Shown piece after piece: positions 2,564 to 49,570 of a stretch of 64,000 nucleotides of DNA (position 1 is the first letter of the stretch; the number at the start of each line of letters is the position of its first letter). Source of the DNA: an uncultured Methanoregula sp. (lineage in GTDB: Archaea > Halobacteriota > Methanomicrobia > Methanomicrobiales > Methanospirillaceae). Location of the stretch: positions 3,386-67,385 of the forward strand of contig CAYPEQ010000007.1 of assembly GCA_964409915.1 (NCBI GenBank), written 5' to 3'. The translations under genes and the position numbers were made by a program. A model generated the notes under the pieces. That model did not search any database. It saw nothing but the letters and a program-made list of their open reading frames with translations, and had not been told where the DNA came from.

Positions 2564-3214
2564 TCAGGGAACACCCTGAAGCTTCATGAAAAACAACCCT
2601 TGTGCAGTCACATAGTCTTCATCGGTCTGGTTTCCGTGAACAACGGAGACCGCGATACCGTTTACATTGTCGACTTTACCATTCATCTCATAAATGGTGA
2701 TTATATCAGGCGATGTATTTACCAAAAAGGACCACGTGTTAACACCGGTAGCATTGTTCTGAACTATTGTATTTCCGTCATAATACTGGTTAAATCCACA
2801 ACAGCCTATTGTTCCCGGCCTTCCTTCCTCTGTGCAAGCCGGGATTGTACATGTTGAAGATAACTCAAGAGAAAGTGGTTCGCCGGCTTGAAGATTGGTA
2901 GTCCCATTGATGAAGAAGGGTCCAGTGTAATTGTCTCTTTCCTCTTGTGGAATGGTAATGTTCATGAGGGAATTCATATGCAACCACAACGATTGGGCTG
3001 CAGATGCTTGTCCTGAAGACTGGTGAGTTACAACCTCTACCGGTGTTTGAAGGGAAAATGTCGGTGTTACAGTTACATTCGTTTTTACCCCATTTACAGG
3101 TGCGTTGGCTTTTGGGGAAGTCACGCACCCGGAACCCGTGATCAAAATTATTGTAACAACGAAAACTGCCACTGGCACAAACGTTAGGATCCTTTTTCCA
3201 TGAAACAACGTCAT
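2564..3214 (-). CDS. Secreted protein with lipobox-like signal peptide (ITGSGC), function unknown
   Basis: ORF 2564-3250; the probable start is ATG 3214 (MTLFHGKRILTFVPVAVFVVTIILITGSGCVTS). The mature part is Thr/Asn-rich. I recognise no family. Confidence 0.55.
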   Translation of the reverse strand: MTLFHGKRILTFVPVAVFVVTIILITGSGCVTSPKANAPVNGVKTNVTVTPTFSLQTPVEVVTHQSSGQASAAQSLWLHMNSLMNITIPQEERDNYTGPFFINGTTNLQAGEPLSLELSSTCTIPACTEEGRPGTIGCCGFNQYYDGNTIVQNNATGVNTWSFLVNTSPDIITIYEMNGKVDNVNGIAVSVVHGNQTDEDYVTAQGLFFMKLQGVP

Positions 3215-3676
3215 TGGGAAATCACCGTTGAGAAAATTACAATGATACATCTCTTTTTCATAAATAAGGAACTAGTTTGTCAGACTCTGGAGACGCATAT
3301 TATTTCGAAGACACAAGCATACAATATGAAAAATCACACAATTCATATTTCTTTTTCACGGTAAATCCTCATTTTCTTCCGTAAAACAGTAGGTCTACAG
3401 AACCAAAAGATCCTTTTTTGCAATACTGGCAAAAATCACCGGCGTGATTTTGCTCACGTGATTAGTGCATACCGCTATATTTACCGTCGAATATAAAATC
3501 TGTGCAGGATGCTCATAGGGACAGGCAAAAATCGGGAAGTCTGGAGAAAAGGGACTTACCGATCAATAATCCTGATAAACATCGGCATCAAACGACTACC
3601 AACGAATCCCGGAAAAATGATGCATATCCCGATGCACCCTGACGGGACTTTTTATGGCAGAACCAGGTGACAGACC

Positions 3677-4579
3677 ATGATCCTTAAGGAGTTTCTCAAA
3701 GAAGCAGGAACGGAAAAGAATCTTGCCAGTCTTATTCTCTTCCTGAGTGAACAGGCAGCTGAAGTAAAAAAGGGCTTTCTTTTGACCTGTTCGAACACGG
3801 CAGCATGCGGCACCCAGAACATCTTCGGGGAAGACCAGAAGCCACTCGACAAATACGCCGATGAAGTGTTCATCAACGCTCTAAAAGAGTCCCGGCTGGT
3901 CAAATATATTGCGACCGAAGAGCAGGATCATATCATCGAAGTACCCGGGGCCAGGAACAATTTTGGTGTGGTGATCGATCCCCTCGACGGTTCCTCTCTC
4001 CTTGACGTTAACCTCTGTGTCGGTTCTATTATCGGCATCTATCCCGGCCATGTTCTTGAAAAGGGATCAAAGATGATCGCAGCCCTCTACATACTGTACG
4101 GGCCACTCACCCTCCTGACGTTCACCACAAAACACGGCGTGCATGAATTTATCCAGCGCCAAGACGGCGAATTTTTCCTGTGCCACCGGGACCTGAAGAT
4201 CCCGGAGGGAAAAATCCACTCGCCGGGCGCACTCCGCAAGGATTACCTGGCACCTCACGCCCAATGGATCAGCCACCTGGAAAGCGAGGGGTACAAACTC
4301 CGGTTCAGCGGCTGTTTTGTGGCCGACGTCCACCAGATCCTCCATAAAGGAGGTGTGTTTACTTATCCCGGGTACAAAGGAAAAGAGTCAGGGAAACTGC
4401 GCCTCCTGTACGAAGCAAACCCTATAGGCATGATCATATGCGAGGCCGGGGGAGCAGTCAGCAACGGGCATACCGATTACCGGGAGATCATGCCGGCATC
4501 GATCGGCCAGGTAACCCCCCTTTATATCGGCGGTAAAAAAGAGATCGCAAAGATTGAAAAATATATGAAGGAAGGATAA
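3677..4579 (+). CDS. fbp: Fructose-1,6-bisphosphatase, class I (bacterial/eukaryotic type)
   Basis: Motifs [40 protein letters not shown] and EAGGAVSNG are present. AGGTGA at 3665-3670 sits 6 nt before the ATG. Confidence 0.9.
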
Positions 4580-4597
4580 GTACAGGGTGCATCAATT

Positions 4598-5737
4598 ATG
4601 GATACGAAAACCTTTGGCCCGATTCCCGGTTCGACTATCTTAACCGGGGTTTCCGGCAAAAAAGCCATTGTTATGGCCGCTAACGTCCGTATTGCAACGG
4701 TTGCGGAAGGCATTTTCAAGGCAGCAACAGATACCGACTCAGCGGTTTTCATGGAACTTGCCCGGTCAGAATCCGATCTTTCCGGGGGATACACCGGGAT
4801 GACCCCGCAGGTCTTTTCGGAGAAGATGCAGGCAGCAGCGAAAGCTACGGGGTGTGACATCTGGGCACTCCATGCCGATCACATATCCATCAAAAAAGGG
4901 GACGCCGCTGAGATTGCCGGGACAAAGCAGCTTATAGATGCACAGGTAAACGCCGGGTATACATCCTTTGCCATCGACGCCTCCCACCTCTTTAACTTCC
5001 AGGGAAAAAATGTCCGGGAGGAACTGGAACTCAATATCCAGGCCACATCTGAGATTGCCCGGTATATCAAACAGAAAATGAACGGAAGTGAATTTGGCCT
5101 TGAAGTGGAAGTGGGCGAGATAGGAAGAAAAGACACCGAAGGCCTGATCCTGACAAAACCTGAGGAGGCAGTCGGATTTATCAAAGCGCTCAACGAAAAC
5201 GACGTTTATCCTCATGTTCTTGCTATTGCAAACGGGAGTTCGCACGGCCATTCCTACGATGCCAACGGAAACGTGATCGAACAACTCTCAATCGATATCC
5301 CCCGTACCCAGGAGATTGCAAAGGCTCTCCGGGACAACCATCTCAAGGTCGGGATCGCCCAGCATGGTATCACCGGCACGCCGCGGGACCTCATTAACCT
5401 GCATTTCCCCAAAGGAGACATCATCAAGGGAAATGTCGGAACGTTCTGGCAGGACGTTGCGTTTAGTATCCTGAAAATCTACGAACCAGCCCTGTACAAG
5501 GATATCATGGACTGGACACTTGAGAAATACCGGCCGGAAAACCCGAATAAAAAAGACAAGCAGATCATCGACGGTAACTGCAAGAACGCGATAAAAGTCT
5601 TCTATAAAGAGATTTACGGGGTCGATGAAGAGACAAATAAAGCCATGAAGGCTATGGCCTACGCAGAAAGCCTCGTCTTTTTCCGGGCGTTTGGCGCATA
5701 TGGTACCGCATCAGCCATACGGAAATCCCTGCACTGA
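4598..5737 (+). CDS. fba: Class II (metal-dependent) fructose/ketose-bisphosphate aldolase family protein
   Basis: Motifs ALHADH, GYTSFAIDASH, EVEVGEIG, LAIANGSSHGHSY and IAQHGITGTP keep the three class II His ligand positions. The gene starts 18 nt after fbp. Confidence 0.8.
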   Translation: MDTKTFGPIPGSTILTGVSGKKAIVMAANVRIATVAEGIFKAATDTDSAVFMELARSESDLSGGYTGMTPQVFSEKMQAAAKATGCDIWALHADHISIKKGDAAEIAGTKQLIDAQVNAGYTSFAIDASHLFNFQGKNVREELELNIQATSEIARYIKQKMNGSEFGLEVEVGEIGRKDTEGLILTKPEEAVGFIKALNENDVYPHVLAIANGSSHGHSYDANGNVIEQLSIDIPRTQEIAKALRDNHLKVGIAQHGITGTPRDLINLHFPKGDIIKGNVGTFWQDVAFSILKIYEPALYKDIMDWTLEKYRPENPNKKDKQIIDGNCKNAIKVFYKEIYGVDEETNKAMKAMAYAESLVFFRAFGAYGTASAIRKSLH

Positions 5738-43898: not shown

Positions 43899-45452
43899 AT
43901 GATCGATACTGCAAACCTTCCCGAAAATCCCGGCTGTTATCTCTATGCAGACGAGAACGGAACAATCATTTATGTCGGGAAGGCAAAGAACCTCAAAAAA
44001 AGAGTGTCGAGTTACTTCACTAAAAAAGATCATGACGCCAAGACCAGGAGCCTCGTTGCCCATATCGCATCAGTCGATGTTGTAGTCACCGATAACGAGA
44101 CCGAAGCATTCCTTCTTGAAAATACGCTTATCAAAAAACACCAGCCGAAGTATAATATCGACTTAAAAGATGCCAAGCGCTATGCATGGATAGAACTGAC
44201 CCTGGAGAAGTACCCGCGACTGGTGATCGCCCGCCGGGCAACCGGGGACGGGACCTTTTTTGGACCTTTTGTCTCCGCAGCGGAACGCGATCACGTACTT
44301 AATGTCGCAAAAAAAATATTTCATCTTCGGACCTGTAAAAAACTCCCAAAACGCCCGTGCCTCCGGCTGCATCTGCAGTCCTGCAGTGCCCCCTGCACTG
44401 GCACAGTAAGCCTTGAGGATTACGAAGAGAATGTCAAAAAAGCCTCACTCCTGCTCAAGGGGAAATCTACCGAGTTGCTTTCCAGGCTCCGTAACGAGAT
44501 GACTACCCGGGCTGAAGAGAAAGAATACGAACGGGCTCTTGTGTTACGGAATGAAATTACTGCTATCGAACACCTTGCCGAACGTCAACAGGTAGAGCGC
44601 CGGCGCACATACGACCAGGATGTTATTGCATGGCAGGTCACTGAGGGAAAGGTCTACCTTCTCGTATTCAATGTTGAACGGGGAGCTCTCGCAAACAAAG
44701 AGGAATTCACCTTCGATACCGGAGAAGATTTCTTCGAAGAGTTCCTTGTCCAGTATTATTCTGACCGCGAACCCCCAAAAGAATTGATCCTTGATCACGA
44801 GACTGATCCGGCCCTTGCATCATTCCTTTCGGTAAAAAAAGGACAGCAGGTAGAAATTGTTGTTCCCAAGAGGGGAGATAAACGATTATTGCTCGACCTT
44901 GCCAAAAAGAACCTCGAAATTGCGTTCTTCCGCGATATCCTGAAAAGTGTTGAACTGGGGGCGGCCCTTAACATGCCTTTTGCACCTTCGGTAATCGAAT
45001 GCTTTGATATATCCCATCTCGCCGGTACGGCCATGGTCGGGTCAATGGTGCAGTTTCGGGACGGAAAACCGGATAAAAGCAACTACCGGCGTTTTAAGAT
45101 CAAGACGGTAGAAGGCATTGACGATTTTGCATCCATAGCAGAGATTGTAAAAAGGAGGTATAAACGTCTCGCTGATGAGCAGGCCCCGTTTCCGGACCTT
45201 GTGATTATTGACGGCGGGAAAGGGCAGCTTTCAGCGGCCCGGGATGCTTTGGCCACACTTGGATCTGCAAATCTGCCGGTTATCGCTATTGCAAAACGAG
45301 AAGAAGAAATCTATATGCCCGATGATGATTTCCCCCTTAGGCTTGATAAGAAAAGCATTGCGCTTCGCTACGTTCAGGAGATAAGAGACGAGGCTCACCG
45401 GTTTGCAATTACCTATAACCGGCTACTGAGAAAAAAGAAAGTTATAACCTGA
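43899..45452 (+). CDS. uvrC: Excinuclease ABC subunit C (lacks the C-terminal helix-hairpin-helix domain)
   Basis: GIY-YIG N-terminus GCYLYADENGTIIYVGKAKNLKKRVSSYF, UVR motif, DGGKGQ endonuclease domain. It ends about 80 aa after DGGKGQ at ..EAHRFAITYNRLLRKKKVIT. Confidence 0.9.
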   Translation: MIDTANLPENPGCYLYADENGTIIYVGKAKNLKKRVSSYFTKKDHDAKTRSLVAHIASVDVVVTDNETEAFLLENTLIKKHQPKYNIDLKDAKRYAWIELTLEKYPRLVIARRATGDGTFFGPFVSAAERDHVLNVAKKIFHLRTCKKLPKRPCLRLHLQSCSAPCTGTVSLEDYEENVKKASLLLKGKSTELLSRLRNEMTTRAEEKEYERALVLRNEITAIEHLAERQQVERRRTYDQDVIAWQVTEGKVYLLVFNVERGALANKEEFTFDTGEDFFEEFLVQYYSDREPPKELILDHETDPALASFLSVKKGQQVEIVVPKRGDKRLLLDLAKKNLEIAFFRDILKSVELGAALNMPFAPSVIECFDISHLAGTAMVGSMVQFRDGKPDKSNYRRFKIKTVEGIDDFASIAEIVKRRYKRLADEQAPFPDLVIIDGGKGQLSAARDALATLGSANLPVIAIAKREEEIYMPDDDFPLRLDKKSIALRYVQEIRDEAHRFAITYNRLLRKKKVIT

Positions 45453-45474
45453 TCGGACAAATGTTTACCACAGT

Positions 45475-45486
45475 TAAAAGTATTTA
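45475..45486 (+). promoter_or_regulatory. TATA-like element AAAAGTATTTAT upstream of the encapsulin operon
   Basis: An A/T box about 45 nt upstream of ATG 45531, which would leave a short leader containing GGAGGA (45521-45526). Confidence 0.3.
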
Positions 45487-45530
45487 TGCTTCCTGATATA
45501 CTATTGACGTAAAAGAAAACGGAGGATATC

Positions 45531-45902
45531 ATGCCAGACTTTTTCAACCCCTTTAGTGGCACCGTTCCGGATCGAAAACTGACTCAGGATGAACTGCTCA
45601 GAGCGATCCGACTCGATATAGCCGGAGAACTGGAAGCGATTCATGGCTATCTTTCCCATGCGGATGCTACGGATAATGCACTTGCAAAGGCTGTGCTCAC
45701 CGATATTGCAAACGAGGAACGCGTCCATGCCGGTGAACTTATCCGGCTACTGGGAATCCTCACGAATGGCGAGGAAGACCAGTATCTCTTGAAAGGAAAA
45801 CTTGAGGTGGACGCCACCCAAGCCGGGTTAAACGCTCCGGCTTCTGAGGCGACCGCAAAGGATGAACCGACAATTGGATCACTGAAAACGACAGGAGTGT
45901 AA
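45531..45902 (+). CDS. Encapsulated ferritin-like cargo protein (EncFtn-type) with C-terminal encapsulin targeting peptide
   Basis: IAGELEAIHGYLSHADATDNALAKAVLTDIANEERVHAGELIRLL has two helices with ExxH-type iron ligands, as in EncFtn. A flexible tail ends in DEPTIGSLKTTGV, matching the (I/L)GSLK cargo-loading motif. Confidence 0.8.
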   Translation: MPDFFNPFSGTVPDRKLTQDELLRAIRLDIAGELEAIHGYLSHADATDNALAKAVLTDIANEERVHAGELIRLLGILTNGEEDQYLLKGKLEVDATQAGLNAPASEATAKDEPTIGSLKTTGV

Positions 45903-45905
45903 ATT

Positions 45906-46694
45906 ATGGCAAATACCTATCTTGGACGAGACGACGCACCGATTGAAGCGGCCACATGGAAATTGATCGACGATGTGATGATACAGGCTGCAAAAAGCCA
46001 GATGACAGGCCGGAAGATCCTGCCCATTGAAGGGCCATTCGGGTTCGGTCTTAAGGTCATCCCGATGGGAGATTATACCATTGATGATGGGATCGTAGGA
46101 AGCACCGCGATTCCCGTGACGATGATCAGGACAGAATTTTCCCTTGCAAAACGGGATCTTGCTGCCTATGAACGCGACCACATTGTCCTGGACACTACCC
46201 CGGTAGCATGTGCGGCAATGGATGCGGCTGAAAAAGAAGACAGGATCCTCTTCTCGGGACTTCCGGGAATTGACGGCCTCCTCAATGCAGAGGGCGCAGG
46301 TTCACTTACTCTTACCAAGTGGGACAAAGTAGGCGCAGCAGCAGACCAGATTATCAATGCAGTCACAAAGCTTGACGAGGCAGGGTTCCATGGACCGTAC
46401 AGCATGGCACTTGCCCCGGCACTGTATAACCTGCTCTTCCGACGGTATCCCCAGGGGGATGGGACAGAACTCGATCATATCCGATCCATTGTCACCGATG
46501 GTGTCGTAAAGGCGCCGGCACTCAGGAAAGGTGGTGTCTTACTTGCCTCCGGCAGCCAGTACACATCTGTCGCTATCGGCCAAGACATGGTGACCGGGTT
46601 CAATGGACCTATAGGTGATCTCCTCGAGTTCCAGATTTATGAAAGCCTTGCTCTCCTTATCCGTGCACCTGAATCAATCCTTGTATTAAAGTAA
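45906..46694 (+). CDS. Family 1 encapsulin shell protein (Linocin_M18 / HK97 fold)
   Basis: 262 aa, colinear by eye with Thermotoga maritima encapsulin: TGRKILPIEGPFGFG, AEKEDRILFSG, FHGPYSMALAP, IGQDM and a C-terminus APESILVLK. It starts 4 nt after the cargo stop with AGGAG upstream. Confidence 0.85.
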   Translation: MANTYLGRDDAPIEAATWKLIDDVMIQAAKSQMTGRKILPIEGPFGFGLKVIPMGDYTIDDGIVGSTAIPVTMIRTEFSLAKRDLAAYERDHIVLDTTPVACAAMDAAEKEDRILFSGLPGIDGLLNAEGAGSLTLTKWDKVGAAADQIINAVTKLDEAGFHGPYSMALAPALYNLLFRRYPQGDGTELDHIRSIVTDGVVKAPALRKGGVLLASGSQYTSVAIGQDMVTGFNGPIGDLLEFQIYESLALLIRAPESILVLK

Positions 46695-46700
46695 CCAATC

Positions 46701-46709
46701 CCTTTTTTT
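46701..46709 (+). terminator. Oligo-T tract (CCTTTTTTT) after the encapsulin gene
   Basis: A T7 run begins 9 nt after the stop. Archaeal terminators are typically oligo-T. Confidence 0.45.
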
Positions 46710-46733: not shown

Positions 46734-47120
46734 ATGAATACCCGTACCTGCTCTCTTTGTGTATCGGTGCTTTTTCTTGCGATAGCACTTGTCTTTGGCG
46801 CTGGCTGTCTCAGTACCACGAATGTAGAAGACAACGCCGCCGGTCTCATTCATACGCATTACCAGTACCAGGATTCATGGTCACCGGAATATGGCTGCTA
46901 CGATGACCTTACTGGGTACGTCTATAACACCGGGAACGTTTCTACGGATAACCTGAAACTCGATTTCAACCTGGTAAACACCGGAACCGGAACCATCAGG
47001 GACTCACGATCCATCTATATCGGGAATCTTGGACCGGGGCAGACGCAAAACTACGAAACCATTCTTGACGGCGAATGCTCGCAGGATTACCGGGTTGACA
47101 TTGCATTCGAAAATCCCTAG
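46734..47120 (+). CDS. Small secreted lipobox protein, function unknown
   Basis: The signal is SVLFLAIALVFGAGCLST. The mature part is ~100 aa and beta-rich. Confidence 0.55.
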   Translation: MNTRTCSLCVSVLFLAIALVFGAGCLSTTNVEDNAAGLIHTHYQYQDSWSPEYGCYDDLTGYVYNTGNVSTDNLKLDFNLVNTGTGTIRDSRSIYIGNLGPGQTQNYETILDGECSQDYRVDIAFENP

Positions 47121-47129
47121 ATGAAGCAG

Positions 47130-47783
47130 TTATGGTTGGTATGCAAGCGGATCCCTGATACCAGCCTGTGCAAACGCTTCGAGCCTTTCCGTGCAGGCAC
47201 CGCATTTCCCGCAGGAGAGGTCTTCACCTTTGTAGCATGACCAGGTATCTGCATATTCCACACCGAGCCCAATTCCTTTTTTAACAATGTCGCCTTTGGA
47301 GAGCCATAAATAAGGCACACTGAGTACGAGATCGTGCCAGTCGCAAAGGTGTAACGCTGTGGTCATAGCACTCACAAACGCCGGCCGGCAATCAGGGTAA
47401 ATCGCATGATCTCCAGCGTGTGCCGCGTAAAACAGGTTTTTTGCACCTATACCGATAGCGTAAGCAGCTGCAAGGCTCAAAAAGATCATGTTCCGGTTGG
47501 GGACCACCGTCTGCTTCATGGTATCTTCAGCATAATGGCCTTCGGGGACCTTCCAGGTGTCCCGGGTCAGGCTCGAGGGGGCAAGATCGTTTAAGACTGG
47601 AAGGTTGACAAGGGTATGAGGGACATGCAGTTTTTTACAGGTCTTTTCTGCGCACCGGATCTCCTTTTTATGCTTCTGGGAATAGTCAAAGGTGACCGCC
47701 GCAACCTCGTATCCCTGATCGATGAGATCGTACAGAAGAGTAGTGCTGTCCATGCCCCCGGAAAAAATAAGTACTGCCTTCAT
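47130..47783 (-). CDS. queC: 7-cyano-7-deazaguanine synthase
   Basis: MKAVLIFSGGMDSTTLLY, VPNRN, and the C-terminal zinc site CYKGEDLSCGKCGACTER. Confidence 0.9.
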   Translation of the reverse strand: MKAVLIFSGGMDSTTLLYDLIDQGYEVAAVTFDYSQKHKKEIRCAEKTCKKLHVPHTLVNLPVLNDLAPSSLTRDTWKVPEGHYAEDTMKQTVVPNRNMIFLSLAAAYAIGIGAKNLFYAAHAGDHAIYPDCRPAFVSAMTTALHLCDWHDLVLSVPYLWLSKGDIVKKGIGLGVEYADTWSCYKGEDLSCGKCGACTERLEAFAQAGIRDPLAYQP

Positions 47784-47923
47784 TGTTGTATCCTTTCCCT
47801 GCTAACCGTTATATTCACGAGCTATATCAAGGAAACGCCGGGCCTCGTGGCAGTAAAAAGAGACAGGCACCTAAAAAGCATATCATTACAAACAACGAAA
47901 ATATAATTCGGGAGTCACCAGAA

Positions 47924-49570
47924 ATGGCCGGTCCATACCTGAAAAGCGGCGAATCTATCATCCTGACAACGGATCGGGTGCTCATTGATGATGTTGAGTA
48001 CGACCTGATCCTTACAAGCCACCGGCTTGCCTTAGTTGACAGCGGCCATTTCAATGAACAGCCACAGGTTGTCCCATTTGACACGATAATATCGGTTAAA
48101 GGCGGAACCACACCGGCACGGGAACCTTGCATCACTATCGCCGTCGTCGACCCGGCTGACATCGATAATGAAAAGACCCTTAAACTTATCTTCACCCAGC
48201 AACCTTACCAGGACCGGGCCGCGGAATGCGATCTCTGGGTAAAAAAATTGATCGAGCATATCGTTTCGGTCCGTCACGAACCGGCACCGGCAGGTAAACA
48301 ACCGGTCGACGTAAAAGCCGAGGGCACACATGCTACCATCCGCCGGTATGTCGCTCCTGAAAAGATTCGGCCCCATTCGGATGTACCCCTGATCAGAAAA
48401 CCATCAGAGGAGTTATTGTCAGCGTTACAGAAAACGGCACAGGAAAAGTATGACCACGCACCGGTTGAACCCGGGCAGTCTGAACAACCTGACATTGAGG
48501 TTACTTCAGAACCTGAACGCGAAGGGGAATTACCGTCACCAGATCTCTTACCAGAAGAGGAAAGCATTGACATCACACCGATAGCCAAAACATCACCCCA
48601 TGATGAAGGCATCCATTTCAAAAGGGAGAGCCACTCTGAGGAAACAGCCGGGCAGCCAGCCCCGGAAGTTCCTTTAACAGAAAAGATTCCTGAAGAGACA
48701 AGGGAATCAGAAGAACAGTCATCTCCGTTAATTGCAGAGGAAAGCCTGAGTATAAAAGTCCCGGATCTGCGGGATCAGGAACAACGCCGCCCCGAACCGA
48801 TGGACGATATCGAAAAATTTGCCGGTGTATATGCAGACAAGATCCCCGGTCCGGCAGTATCATACGGAGCACTATCGGAACTTGATATACCCGGTGATGT
48901 GCAGGCCGAAGAATCAAAAACTCCTGATGACGAAAGCTCGGAAGGGACGGGTCTACCCGACACAGTGGTTTTCCCGGTACTTTCAGGCAGTGTCAATCAA
49001 GACGAAACGCCAAAAACTCCGGAAAGAAATGCTCCACCAGTACCCATTGAACCCCCCTCTCCGGGAAAGACGGCGGGAAAAAAGCCGGTCGGGATGATTG
49101 TCGCAATTATACTCGTGCTTATCGTTGTCTTTGGAGCAACAGCCATGATTGTTTTGTCCTCTCCTGCGGGAGTGGTAAGCGGTGCAAATAACACGGTCGT
49201 TGTACCAATCGTCACTTCACCTCCAGTTACAACACTTGTACCACAGGAGGTAATGCCTTCACAAGGCGTGTGGGTAAAAGTAACCTATAACGGAACTTAT
49301 CTGGGTGAATACGGGAATCCCGGAGGCCTCATTCTGGTCCGGGGAACCGGAGAACAGTTCTATGCCATTAAAAACAGCAGTGATCTCGTCCAGGCAAGCT
49401 TCCAGAAGATGGACTATTCCGGGGATACACTAACGGTTGACATTTATAATAACGGCTCACTGATCACGGACATCAGCAAAAGTGCCCCGGAAGCAACGAT
49501 AGCGCTGCTCGTTGATCCCAAGACAGGAAAACCCCCGTATGTACCGGTCAGGCAAGAGGGTGTACCGTAA
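47924..49570 (+). CDS. Membrane protein: N-terminal PH/GRAM-like domain, acidic disordered region, one TM, extracellular beta-rich domain
   Basis: ATG 47924 gives MAGPYLKSGESIILTTDRVLIDDVEYDLILTSHRLALVD. A ~230-aa Glu/Pro/Ser-rich segment follows, then the TM MIVAIILVLIVVFGATAMIVL. The longest ORF starts at 47783, inside queC antisense. Confidence 0.55.
   Translation: MAGPYLKSGESIILTTDRVLIDDVEYDLILTSHRLALVDSGHFNEQPQVVPFDTIISVKGGTTPAREPCITIAVVDPADIDNEKTLKLIFTQQPYQDRAAECDLWVKKLIEHIVSVRHEPAPAGKQPVDVKAEGTHATIRRYVAPEKIRPHSDVPLIRKPSEELLSALQKTAQEKYDHAPVEPGQSEQPDIEVTSEPEREGELPSPDLLPEEESIDITPIAKTSPHDEGIHFKRESHSEETAGQPAPEVPLTEKIPEETRESEEQSSPLIAEESLSIKVPDLRDQEQRRPEPMDDIEKFAGVYADKIPGPAVSYGALSELDIPGDVQAEESKTPDDESSEGTGLPDTVVFPVLSGSVNQDETPKTPERNAPPVPIEPPSPGKTAGKKPVGMIVAIILVLIVVFGATAMIVLSSPAGVVSGANNTVVVPIVTSPPVTTLVPQEVMPSQGVWVKVTYNGTYLGEYGNPGGLILVRGTGEQFYAIKNSSDLVQASFQKMDYSGDTLTVDIYNNGSLITDISKSAPEATIALLVDPKTGKPPYVPVRQEGVP

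Follow-up and report, generated by a model that had tools for sequence, protein, structure and literature searches.

Two adjacent genes in DNA from an uncultured Methanoregula sp. raise the question of whether this strictly anaerobic archaeon builds an iron-oxidizing protein compartment, and what such a compartment would do for it. We analyzed a 64-kb stretch of the genome (GCA_964409915.1, CAYPEQ010000007.1 positions 3,386-67,385, forward strand; hereafter the window), in which a gene for a 123-amino-acid (aa) protein (45531-45902, + strand) is followed by a gene for a 262-aa protein (45906-46694, + strand). A first-pass annotation had read the pair as an encapsulin shell with a ferritin-like cargo in a presumed methanogen. 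The host is indeed a methanogen, Methanoregula, and the two open reading frames (ORFs), motifs, C-terminal tail, ribosome-binding sites, TATA-like box, and T7 tract listed in that annotation are all present where it placed them. The assignment itself was borne out, well past anything expected by chance, by matches above the cut-offs of Pfam PF04454, NCBIfam NF041155, and the NCBIfam EncB_fam model. The two-gene operon very probably encodes a Family 1 encapsulin nanocompartment with an encapsulated-ferritin cargo.

Distribution of the pair was analyzed by scanning one genome per species, which yielded 41 loci. The stop codon of the cargo gene and the start of the shell gene are separated by 3 nucleotides (nt) in the window and by 2 to 29 nt in all 41 loci, and these short gaps suggest that cargo and shell are expressed from a single transcript.

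Shell protein and its cargo

The 262-aa protein matched Pfam PF04454 (Linocin_M18) with E=4.2e-71 and 239.6 bits (cut-off, 24.3), with residues 4-249 aligned to profile positions 2-253 of 253. It also matched the NCBIfam equivalog model NF041155 (encap_f1) with 221.1 bits (cut-off, 100), with residues 6-261 aligned to positions 1-261 of 261. These full-length matches above both cut-offs assign it to the Family 1 shells. Among PDB sequences, 37 distinct solved encapsulin shells were matched, the best with E=1.9e-36. A 100% identical protein is already named 'family 1 encapsulin nanocompartment shell protein [Methanoregula sp.]' at NCBI.

Two AlphaFold2 models of the shell were computed. The first, from an alignment of 41 close relatives (≥64% identity), had a predicted local distance difference test (pLDDT) score of 41 and was discarded. 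The second used an alignment of Methanoregulaceae sequences and a Sporomusaceae-type bacterial clade gathered from the best solved relative. It reached a pLDDT of 84.8 and a predicted template modeling (TM) score (pTM) of 0.79, and only residues 1-4 and 57-66 were of low confidence. The model displays the N-helix, P-domain, A-domain, and E-loop of the HK97 fold. A Foldseek search of the PDB with this model returned Family 1 encapsulin shells for all of the top 50 matches, with TM scores of 0.85-0.88 to Myxococcus xanthus EncA and to the shells of Bacillus methanolicus (9fy6), Dendrosporobacter quercicolus (9i8e), and Quasibacillus thermotolerans (6nj8), and of 0.82 to Thermotoga maritima encapsulin. 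On its sequence and model, the 262-aa protein is predicted to have the HK97 fold of encapsulin shells. The two outcomes that the first-pass annotation had named as fatal to its proposal, the lack of a significant match and an HK97-unlike fold for 45906-46694, were looked for, and the opposite was found in both cases. The likeness to T. maritima encapsulin that it had drawn by eye is that of a true relative but a distant one (22% identity); far closer matches are M. xanthus EncA and the shells of D. quercicolus and Q. thermotolerans.

The shell has a shortened E-loop hairpin (46053-46121, + strand; residues ~50-72, with the tip at 57-66). In the alignment, 17 residues lie between the invariant P53 and P70 of the Methanoregulaceae shell, compared with 23 in T. 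maritima, whose shell has a triangulation number (T) of 1, and 32-34 in D. quercicolus-type shells. The Methanoregulaceae E-loop is thus 6 residues shorter than that of T. maritima and 15 shorter than that of the D. quercicolus clade; the T. maritima sequence used was checked and is identical to 3dkt_A. As aligned, the Methanoregulaceae shell appears to be a variant with the shortest E-loop among the solved shells compared (T. maritima and D. quercicolus). The closest solved relatives (D. quercicolus, M. xanthus, and Q. thermotolerans) form T=3 or T=4 cages, yet the E-loop in the window is shorter than that of a T=1 shell. T number has been ascribed to the E-loop's conformation and not to its length (PMC11664910), and it is therefore not predictable for the Methanoregulaceae shell. 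A naturally shortened E-loop could nevertheless inform how shell size is set.

The 123-aa protein contains the stretches GELEAIHGY and NEERVHAGEL and ends in DEPTIGSLKTTGV. It comprises a two-helix ferritin-like core (~residues 14-90), a variable linker (~94-112), and the targeting peptide TIGSLK (45870-45887, + strand; residues 114-119), after which four residues, TTGV, complete the protein. Cargos of this class have a structured domain of ~100 aa, a disordered linker of 10-40 aa, and a C-terminal targeting peptide (PMC11202242). The 41 orthologues fit this architecture, with residues 1-93 conserved, residues 94-112 varying in sequence and length, and the C-terminal peptide conserved. Judging by its composition and variability, the linker (94-112) is presumably flexible or disordered.

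The motif T[IV]G[SA]L[KR] is found at the cargo C-terminus in 39 of the 41 loci, followed by 0-6 residues, and the two exceptions carry TIGTLK (locus L015) and TIGPMK (locus L020). Positions T114-x-G116-x-L118-K119 are conserved, while the ~20 residues before them vary freely. TIGSLK resembles the LTVGSL-type targeting peptide of M. xanthus (PMC11202242). A cargo gene with a targeting peptide accompanies the shell gene in the same operon in 41 of 41 related loci and also in Methanoregula boonei 6A8, as expected of a Family 1 shell. A search for secondary cargos found no other ORF in the 64-kb window with a tail of the form x[ILV]G[SAT][LM][KR].

The cargo passed the NCBIfam model NF058679 (EncB_fam) with 115.8 bits (cut-off, 90). 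It scored below the cut-offs of TIGR04535 (ferrit_encaps; 85.8 against 125) and Pfam PF22277 (EncFtn-like; 17.7 against 27). Its PDB sequence matches include M. xanthus EncC (7s8t, E=6e-15), Pyrococcus furiosus EncFtn (5n5e, 4e-8), and M. xanthus EncB (7s5c, 4e-7), and the solved EncC, P. furiosus EncFtn, and EncB chains together match it across E=6e-15 to 1e-6. These comparisons suggest a member of the EncB-type branch that is divergent from the Rhodospirillum rubrum-type models.

Residues E33, E35, Y40, E63, and H66 of the cargo are invariant or nearly so in the alignment of 41 orthologues. The ferroxidase center of EncFtn consists of Glu32, Glu62, and His65 with the conserved Tyr39 (R. rubrum numbering; PMC11202242). 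Cargo residues E33, E63, H66, and Y40 map onto Glu32, Glu62, His65, and Tyr39, respectively, and they are in register in the EncC and P. furiosus EncFtn alignments. The cargo is accordingly taken to be an EncB/EncC-type encapsulated ferritin, with the Glu/Glu/His di-iron ligands intact and a Tyr nearby. Public records call its orthologues 'Rubrerythrin', 'ferritin family protein', or 'hypothetical protein' (e.g., Mboo_1094), beside a correctly named shell. These names under-describe the cargo, which the newer EncB_fam model would name correctly.

Relatives, distribution, and origin

Among solved structures, the D. quercicolus encapsulin (PDB 9i8e/9i8f) was the best sequence match to the shell (E=1.9e-36; TM score, 0.85-0.87). 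Its relatives are strict anaerobes belonging to the Sporomusaceae (Pelosinus, Anaerosporomusa, and Lucifera) and the Geobacteraceae. Shells of this clade are 31-35% identical to the window shell and differ from it in their length of 278 aa and their long E-loop. Four chains are listed in the D. quercicolus PDB entry, which suggests a T=4 asymmetric unit. The Q. thermotolerans shell (6nj8) matched with E~1e-32.

The M. xanthus system of EncA, EncB, EncC, and EncD (PDB 4pt2, 7s20, 7s2t, 7s8t, and 7s5c) has a shell of the same family (E=2.6e-35; TM score, 0.86-0.87), and its EncC is the best solved relative of the cargo, with an HxDATDN stretch common to both. The two systems also share a targeting peptide of the xT(V/I)GSL(R/K) type and a cargo that is encoded by a separate gene and has a presumably disordered linker. 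M. xanthus, however, is an aerobe whose shells are T=3 (and T=1) and whose three cargos are in part encoded at other sites, whereas Methanoregula is a strictly anaerobic archaeon with a single cargo encoded directly upstream of the shell. The window shell is 25 residues shorter than EncA (262 against 287 aa), and identity is only ~30%.

T. maritima (PDB 3dkt and 7kq5) shares the strictly anaerobic lifestyle, a Family 1 shell that is about as long (265 aa) and has a PE..ILLK-type C-terminus, and a ferritin-like cargo gene directly upstream. Its shell is T=1 and only distantly related (E=1.2e-14), and loops besides the E-loop also differ. The T. maritima targeting peptide is of a different sequence type. 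P. furiosus and other archaea with Flp-fusion encapsulins (Flp, ferritin-like protein; PDB 2e0z and 5n5e) are likewise anaerobic and combine an EncFtn-type ferroxidase domain with a Family 1 shell. In P. furiosus the ferritin domain is fused to the shell N-terminus and there is no targeting peptide, in contrast to the separate cargo and targeting peptide of Methanoregula, and the P. furiosus shell matches the window shell only at residues 122-261 (E=6e-11).

Archaea typically have the fused form, and cargos that are separate and carry targeting peptides are 'predominantly found in bacteria' (PMC11202242). The Methanoregula system is of bacterial style in an archaeon. Transfer of Family 1 systems from bacteria to archaea has been suggested before, and Flp cargos were recorded in two archaeal phyla (PMC8346489). 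Since the closest counterparts of the module are the bacterial M. xanthus and Sporomusaceae-type systems, its ancient acquisition from bacteria is probable. Recent horizontal transfer was also considered and was dropped, as G+C content is flat (0.47-0.53) over 41-51 kb of the window.

All 41 loci belong to Methanoregula or other Methanoregulaceae, except for one from a Methanospirillaceae metagenome-assembled genome (MAG). The loci fall into two clades. The window, M. boonei, and ~15 others make up clade A, in which the shells share at least 76% identity and the gene order is recQ - uvrC - cargo - shell - DUF7490 (lipoprotein-like) - queC. In the cultured type strain M. boonei 6A8, the cargo is Mboo_1094 (69% identity), a 262-aa Linocin_M18 gene follows, and the neighborhood is the same. 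The 25 loci of clade B, whose shells are 53-70% identical, have none of the clade A neighbors. The surroundings are cellular in both: recQ, uvrC, the DUF7490 gene, and queC in the window, and genes for superoxide dismutase (SOD), HEAT-repeat proteins, and a flavoprotein reductase in clade B. Because only cargo and shell stay together across these two unrelated contexts, they appear to form a module.

In 17 of the 25 clade B loci, the cargo start is preceded, at a distance of 27-105 nt and on the same strand, by a gene for Fe/Mn SOD (at about 2850-3600 in each locus, L016-L041). Several of the short SOD-cargo gaps show no obvious TATA box, suggesting a sod-encFtn-enc transcript. The 64-kb window itself contains no SOD gene. 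A MerA/glutathione-reductase-like flavoprotein disulfide reductase is encoded ~1 kb downstream in ~9 clade B loci. In 23 clade B loci, a conserved ORF of 116-119 aa begins ~30-40 nt after the shell gene (L028:4818-5177, L016:4829-5179, and 21 others). It is absent from clade A and matched no family in Pfam or NCBIfam. Its C-terminus is rich in Cys (…ESCGKSCG / …GCCGTSDG). This ORF could be a third operon member, for example a metal-binding accessory protein.

As a separate observation, the module looks broken in two MAGs. In L015 the cargo ORF is interrupted (~3625-3990), and in L040 the shell is split into ORFs of 159 and 96 aa (3992-4790). Both MAGs come from one 'MFD' series, which makes frameshifts introduced in assembly no less likely than true pseudogenes.

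Role of the compartment and competing explanations

By analogy with characterized homologues, the shell would self-assemble into an icosahedral cage, and annular cargo decamers would dock by their tails, fitting into the groove that runs between N-helix and P-domain. Fe(II) would pass through the shell pores and be oxidized by O2 or H2O2 at the ferroxidase center of the cargo, and the ferric mineral would stay within the shell; the cargo by itself would store no iron. Gene context points to protection during transient exposure to O2 or peroxide as the physiological role: the compartment would clear Fenton-active Fe(II) and use up oxidant, and the storage of iron would be incidental. This role is supported by the SOD gene directly upstream and, in fewer loci, the disulfide reductase gene downstream in clade B, by the DNA-repair neighbors recQ and uvrC in clade A, and by the lack of an iron-regulator box at the promoter. 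Of the clues to function at hand, the SOD linkage is the strongest, and it lends contextual support to the first-pass suggestion of an oxidative-stress role.

Several points weigh against the proposal as a whole, in addition to the two profile scores below cut-off. The SOD linkage belongs to the sister clade and not to that of the window, and it may be one inherited arrangement instead of independent evidence. The eight clade B loci without SOD showed no common stress theme, their neighbors being PAS, LUD, PEGA, GntP, and HEAT-Rieske genes, and the adjacency of recQ and uvrC could be plain synteny. The argument for iron content and ferroxidase activity, as for shell assembly and cargo loading, comes entirely from homologues. 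Ferroxidase chemistry needs an oxidant, and the host is a strict anaerobe. The flat G+C content bears no trace of transfer, so any horizontal acquisition of the pair would be old.

The habitat suits this role: Methanoregula species live in peat, and methanogens of this kind may be comparatively well armed against oxidants. Methanoregula species are dominant methane producers of peatlands, where a shifting water table brings cells into contact with oxygen. If a protein compartment cleared reactive iron and oxidant, this would partly explain their survival there, and the SOD link makes this idea testable. M. boonei 6A8, being cultured and carrying the same locus, makes expression and particle studies feasible.

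Several elements of this picture are already known: the type of system, the NCBI name of the shell, and encapsulated ferritins in strict anaerobes, namely, T. maritima and P. furiosus (PMC11202242). The first-pass annotation therefore overstated how notable an iron-mineralizing encapsulin is in such a host, given that Sporomusaceae presumably also have them. Its remark that no experiments have yet addressed encapsulins of methanogens is in keeping with the literature, as a search for papers on encapsulins in Methanoregula or any methanogen found no relevant one. The Methanoregulaceae-wide distribution, the SOD-linked form of the operon, the short E-loop, and a promoter repeat described below are new but modest, and they extend the general picture of encapsulins without changing it.

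The best-surviving alternative is that the compartment is mainly a housekeeping iron store, filled and emptied with the iron supply under a DtxR-type regulator, and not an oxidative-stress device. EncFtn and IMEF encapsulins have been described as high-capacity iron stores (PMC11202242). The window also encodes FeoB (<1-1722, - strand, cut by the window start) and, directly upstream of feoB, a 242-aa DtxR regulator (1742-2470, - strand) with DtxR DNA-binding and dimerization domains fused to a FeoA domain. The first-pass annotation had linked the encapsulin operon to these genes. The window does contain both, but they lie 43 kb from the operon, which makes the link weak. Upstream of dtxR, a 14-nt stretch, TTAGGGCGCCCTAA (2474-2487), is perfectly palindromic, and a related site, TTAGGTTGACCAAA, lies at 2500-2513. 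The two resemble half of a bacterial DtxR/IdeR box and are candidate autoregulatory operators. The same annotation had proposed to look for a DtxR-type box at 45453-45530. Palindromes of the TTAGGNNNNCCTAA type (TTAGG...CCTAA) were found only upstream of dtxR-feoB, and none was found in 45453-45530 or the rest of the window; the dtxR sites serve here as a reference by analogy and may not be the operator of the regulator. With no DtxR-type palindromic operator at the encapsulin promoter, membership in a DtxR/IdeR-controlled iron regulon was not supported.

The encapsulin promoter carries a different inverted repeat instead, GTCAAAAGT-N18-ACTATTGAC. This imperfect repeat (45473-45508, + strand) has its arms GTTAAAAGT at 45473-45481 and ACTATTGAC at 45500-45508, separated by 18 nt. 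A TATA-like ATTTAT (45482-45487, + strand) lies inside the spacer, ~46 nt upstream of the cargo ATG. Repressors of archaea often bind around the TATA box. Within the window, only here does the motif occur on both strands (with 1 and 2 mismatches). Clade A loci retain both arms but differ in the DNA farther upstream, and the 18-nt spacing is kept in 12 of 17 scored clade A loci, including the window and M. boonei. In a subclade, the second arm has diverged (AACTCTGAC) and the spacing is 19-20 nt. The repeat of L034 has 13-nt arms that are 92% complementary. The repeat may be the operator of a dedicated regulator, for which it is a candidate, or it may be just the transcription factor B recognition element (BRE)/TATA and initiator region.

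A regulon-wide function of this palindrome was considered and rejected, because other matches in the window were at chance level (8 found and 4.6 expected). A metagenome scan with the exact two-arm pattern returned 36 matches, of which 7 were encapsulin promoters and 29 were chance matches in unrelated DNA. No wider regulon sharing the repeat was seen in either the 64-kb window or the metagenome scan.

The conserved repeat could bind some metal-responsive regulator, as the iron-store explanation would have it. The palindromes upstream of dtxR, however, have no counterpart at the encapsulin promoter, feoB and dtxR are remote from it, and the conserved neighbors are SOD and disulfide reductase genes (clade B) or DNA-repair genes (clade A) instead of iron uptake genes. 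A role as an iron store is compatible with a role in stress protection, and the two are not mutually exclusive. We rate the housekeeping store lower and regard it as possible but rather unlikely.

A more elaborate form of the oxidative-stress reading can also be proposed. The compartment would be an 'oxygen-shock' organelle of peat methanogens with a short-E-loop shell of unusual size or with an unusual two-fold pore. SOD would be cotranscribed with it in many species, and the H2O2 made by SOD would be used by the encapsulated ferroxidase to lock away Fenton-active iron, under a dedicated regulator acting on the inverted repeat around the TATA box. Taken as a whole, this scheme is speculative, and we consider it doubtful.

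Two further alternatives concern the identity of the proteins. The small protein might be a rubrerythrin-type peroxidase, acting as a free or encapsulated H2O2 reductase and not as a mineral-feeding ferroxidase. Public records do name orthologues 'Rubrerythrin', and the Pfam Rubrerythrin profile PF02915 gave 23.8 bits, just over its cut-off of 22.8. That match, however, covers only 58 residues against the 137 positions of the model; the protein is built of two helices, not a four-helix bundle, and lacks a rubredoxin domain. The specific EncB_fam model scores far higher, the best solved relatives are the EncC, EncB, and EncFtn decamers, and a census of encapsulins treats such Pfam calls on their cargos as Flp ferroxidases (PMC8346489). 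The peroxidase explanation is thus very improbable. The 262-aa gene might instead be a remnant HK97 capsid gene of a phage or provirus and not encode a cellular compartment, but this has next to no likelihood: encapsulins and phage capsids do share the HK97 fold and a common ancestor (PMC8346489), but 50 of the 50 best structural matches are encapsulins, the equivalog cut-off is passed twofold, the neighbors (recQ, uvrC, the DUF7490 gene, and queC) include no phage genes such as those for a portal, protease, or terminase, and the gene is conserved across 41 species-level genomes, always adjacent to a cargo with a targeting peptide. Both of these explanations are effectively excluded, and a Family 1 encapsulin with an encapsulated-ferritin cargo is the reading that we retain.

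Expression signals and neighboring genes

Each gene of the operon has a ribosome-binding site. That of the cargo gene is GGAGG (45521-45525, + strand), 5 nt 5' of the ATG, and the form (A/C)GGAGG is kept in close relatives. That of the shell gene is GGAG (45894-45897, + strand) and lies within the end of the cargo gene. Archaeal transcription terminates at oligo-T tracts, and the T7 tract 8 nt past the shell stop codon (46703-46709, + strand) is likely such a terminator. A search for a bacterial-type hairpin terminator after the shell gene found none. Sigma-70-like matches in the encapsulin region were set aside, as the host is an archaeon.

The operon is followed by a gene for a 128-aa protein (46734-47120) with a signal/lipobox-like N-terminus (…LVFGAGC) and a DUF7490/FxLYD-like domain. 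This gene is syntenic throughout clade A and absent from clade B, and it is therefore probably unrelated to the compartment.

Upstream of the operon, a UvrC homologue of 517 aa (43899-45452) ends just past its RNase H-like endonuclease domain, and no helix-hairpin-helix match was reported for it. The M. boonei UvrC is also 517 aa long, and one metagenomic relative was called at 573 aa. Further downstream, a 595-aa ORF (47783-49570) is divergent from queC and weakly conserved in relatives (44-65%). Its long middle part is acidic and rich in Pro and Glu, and it is followed by a hydrophobic segment and then by a C-terminal part rich in Ser, Thr, and Val.

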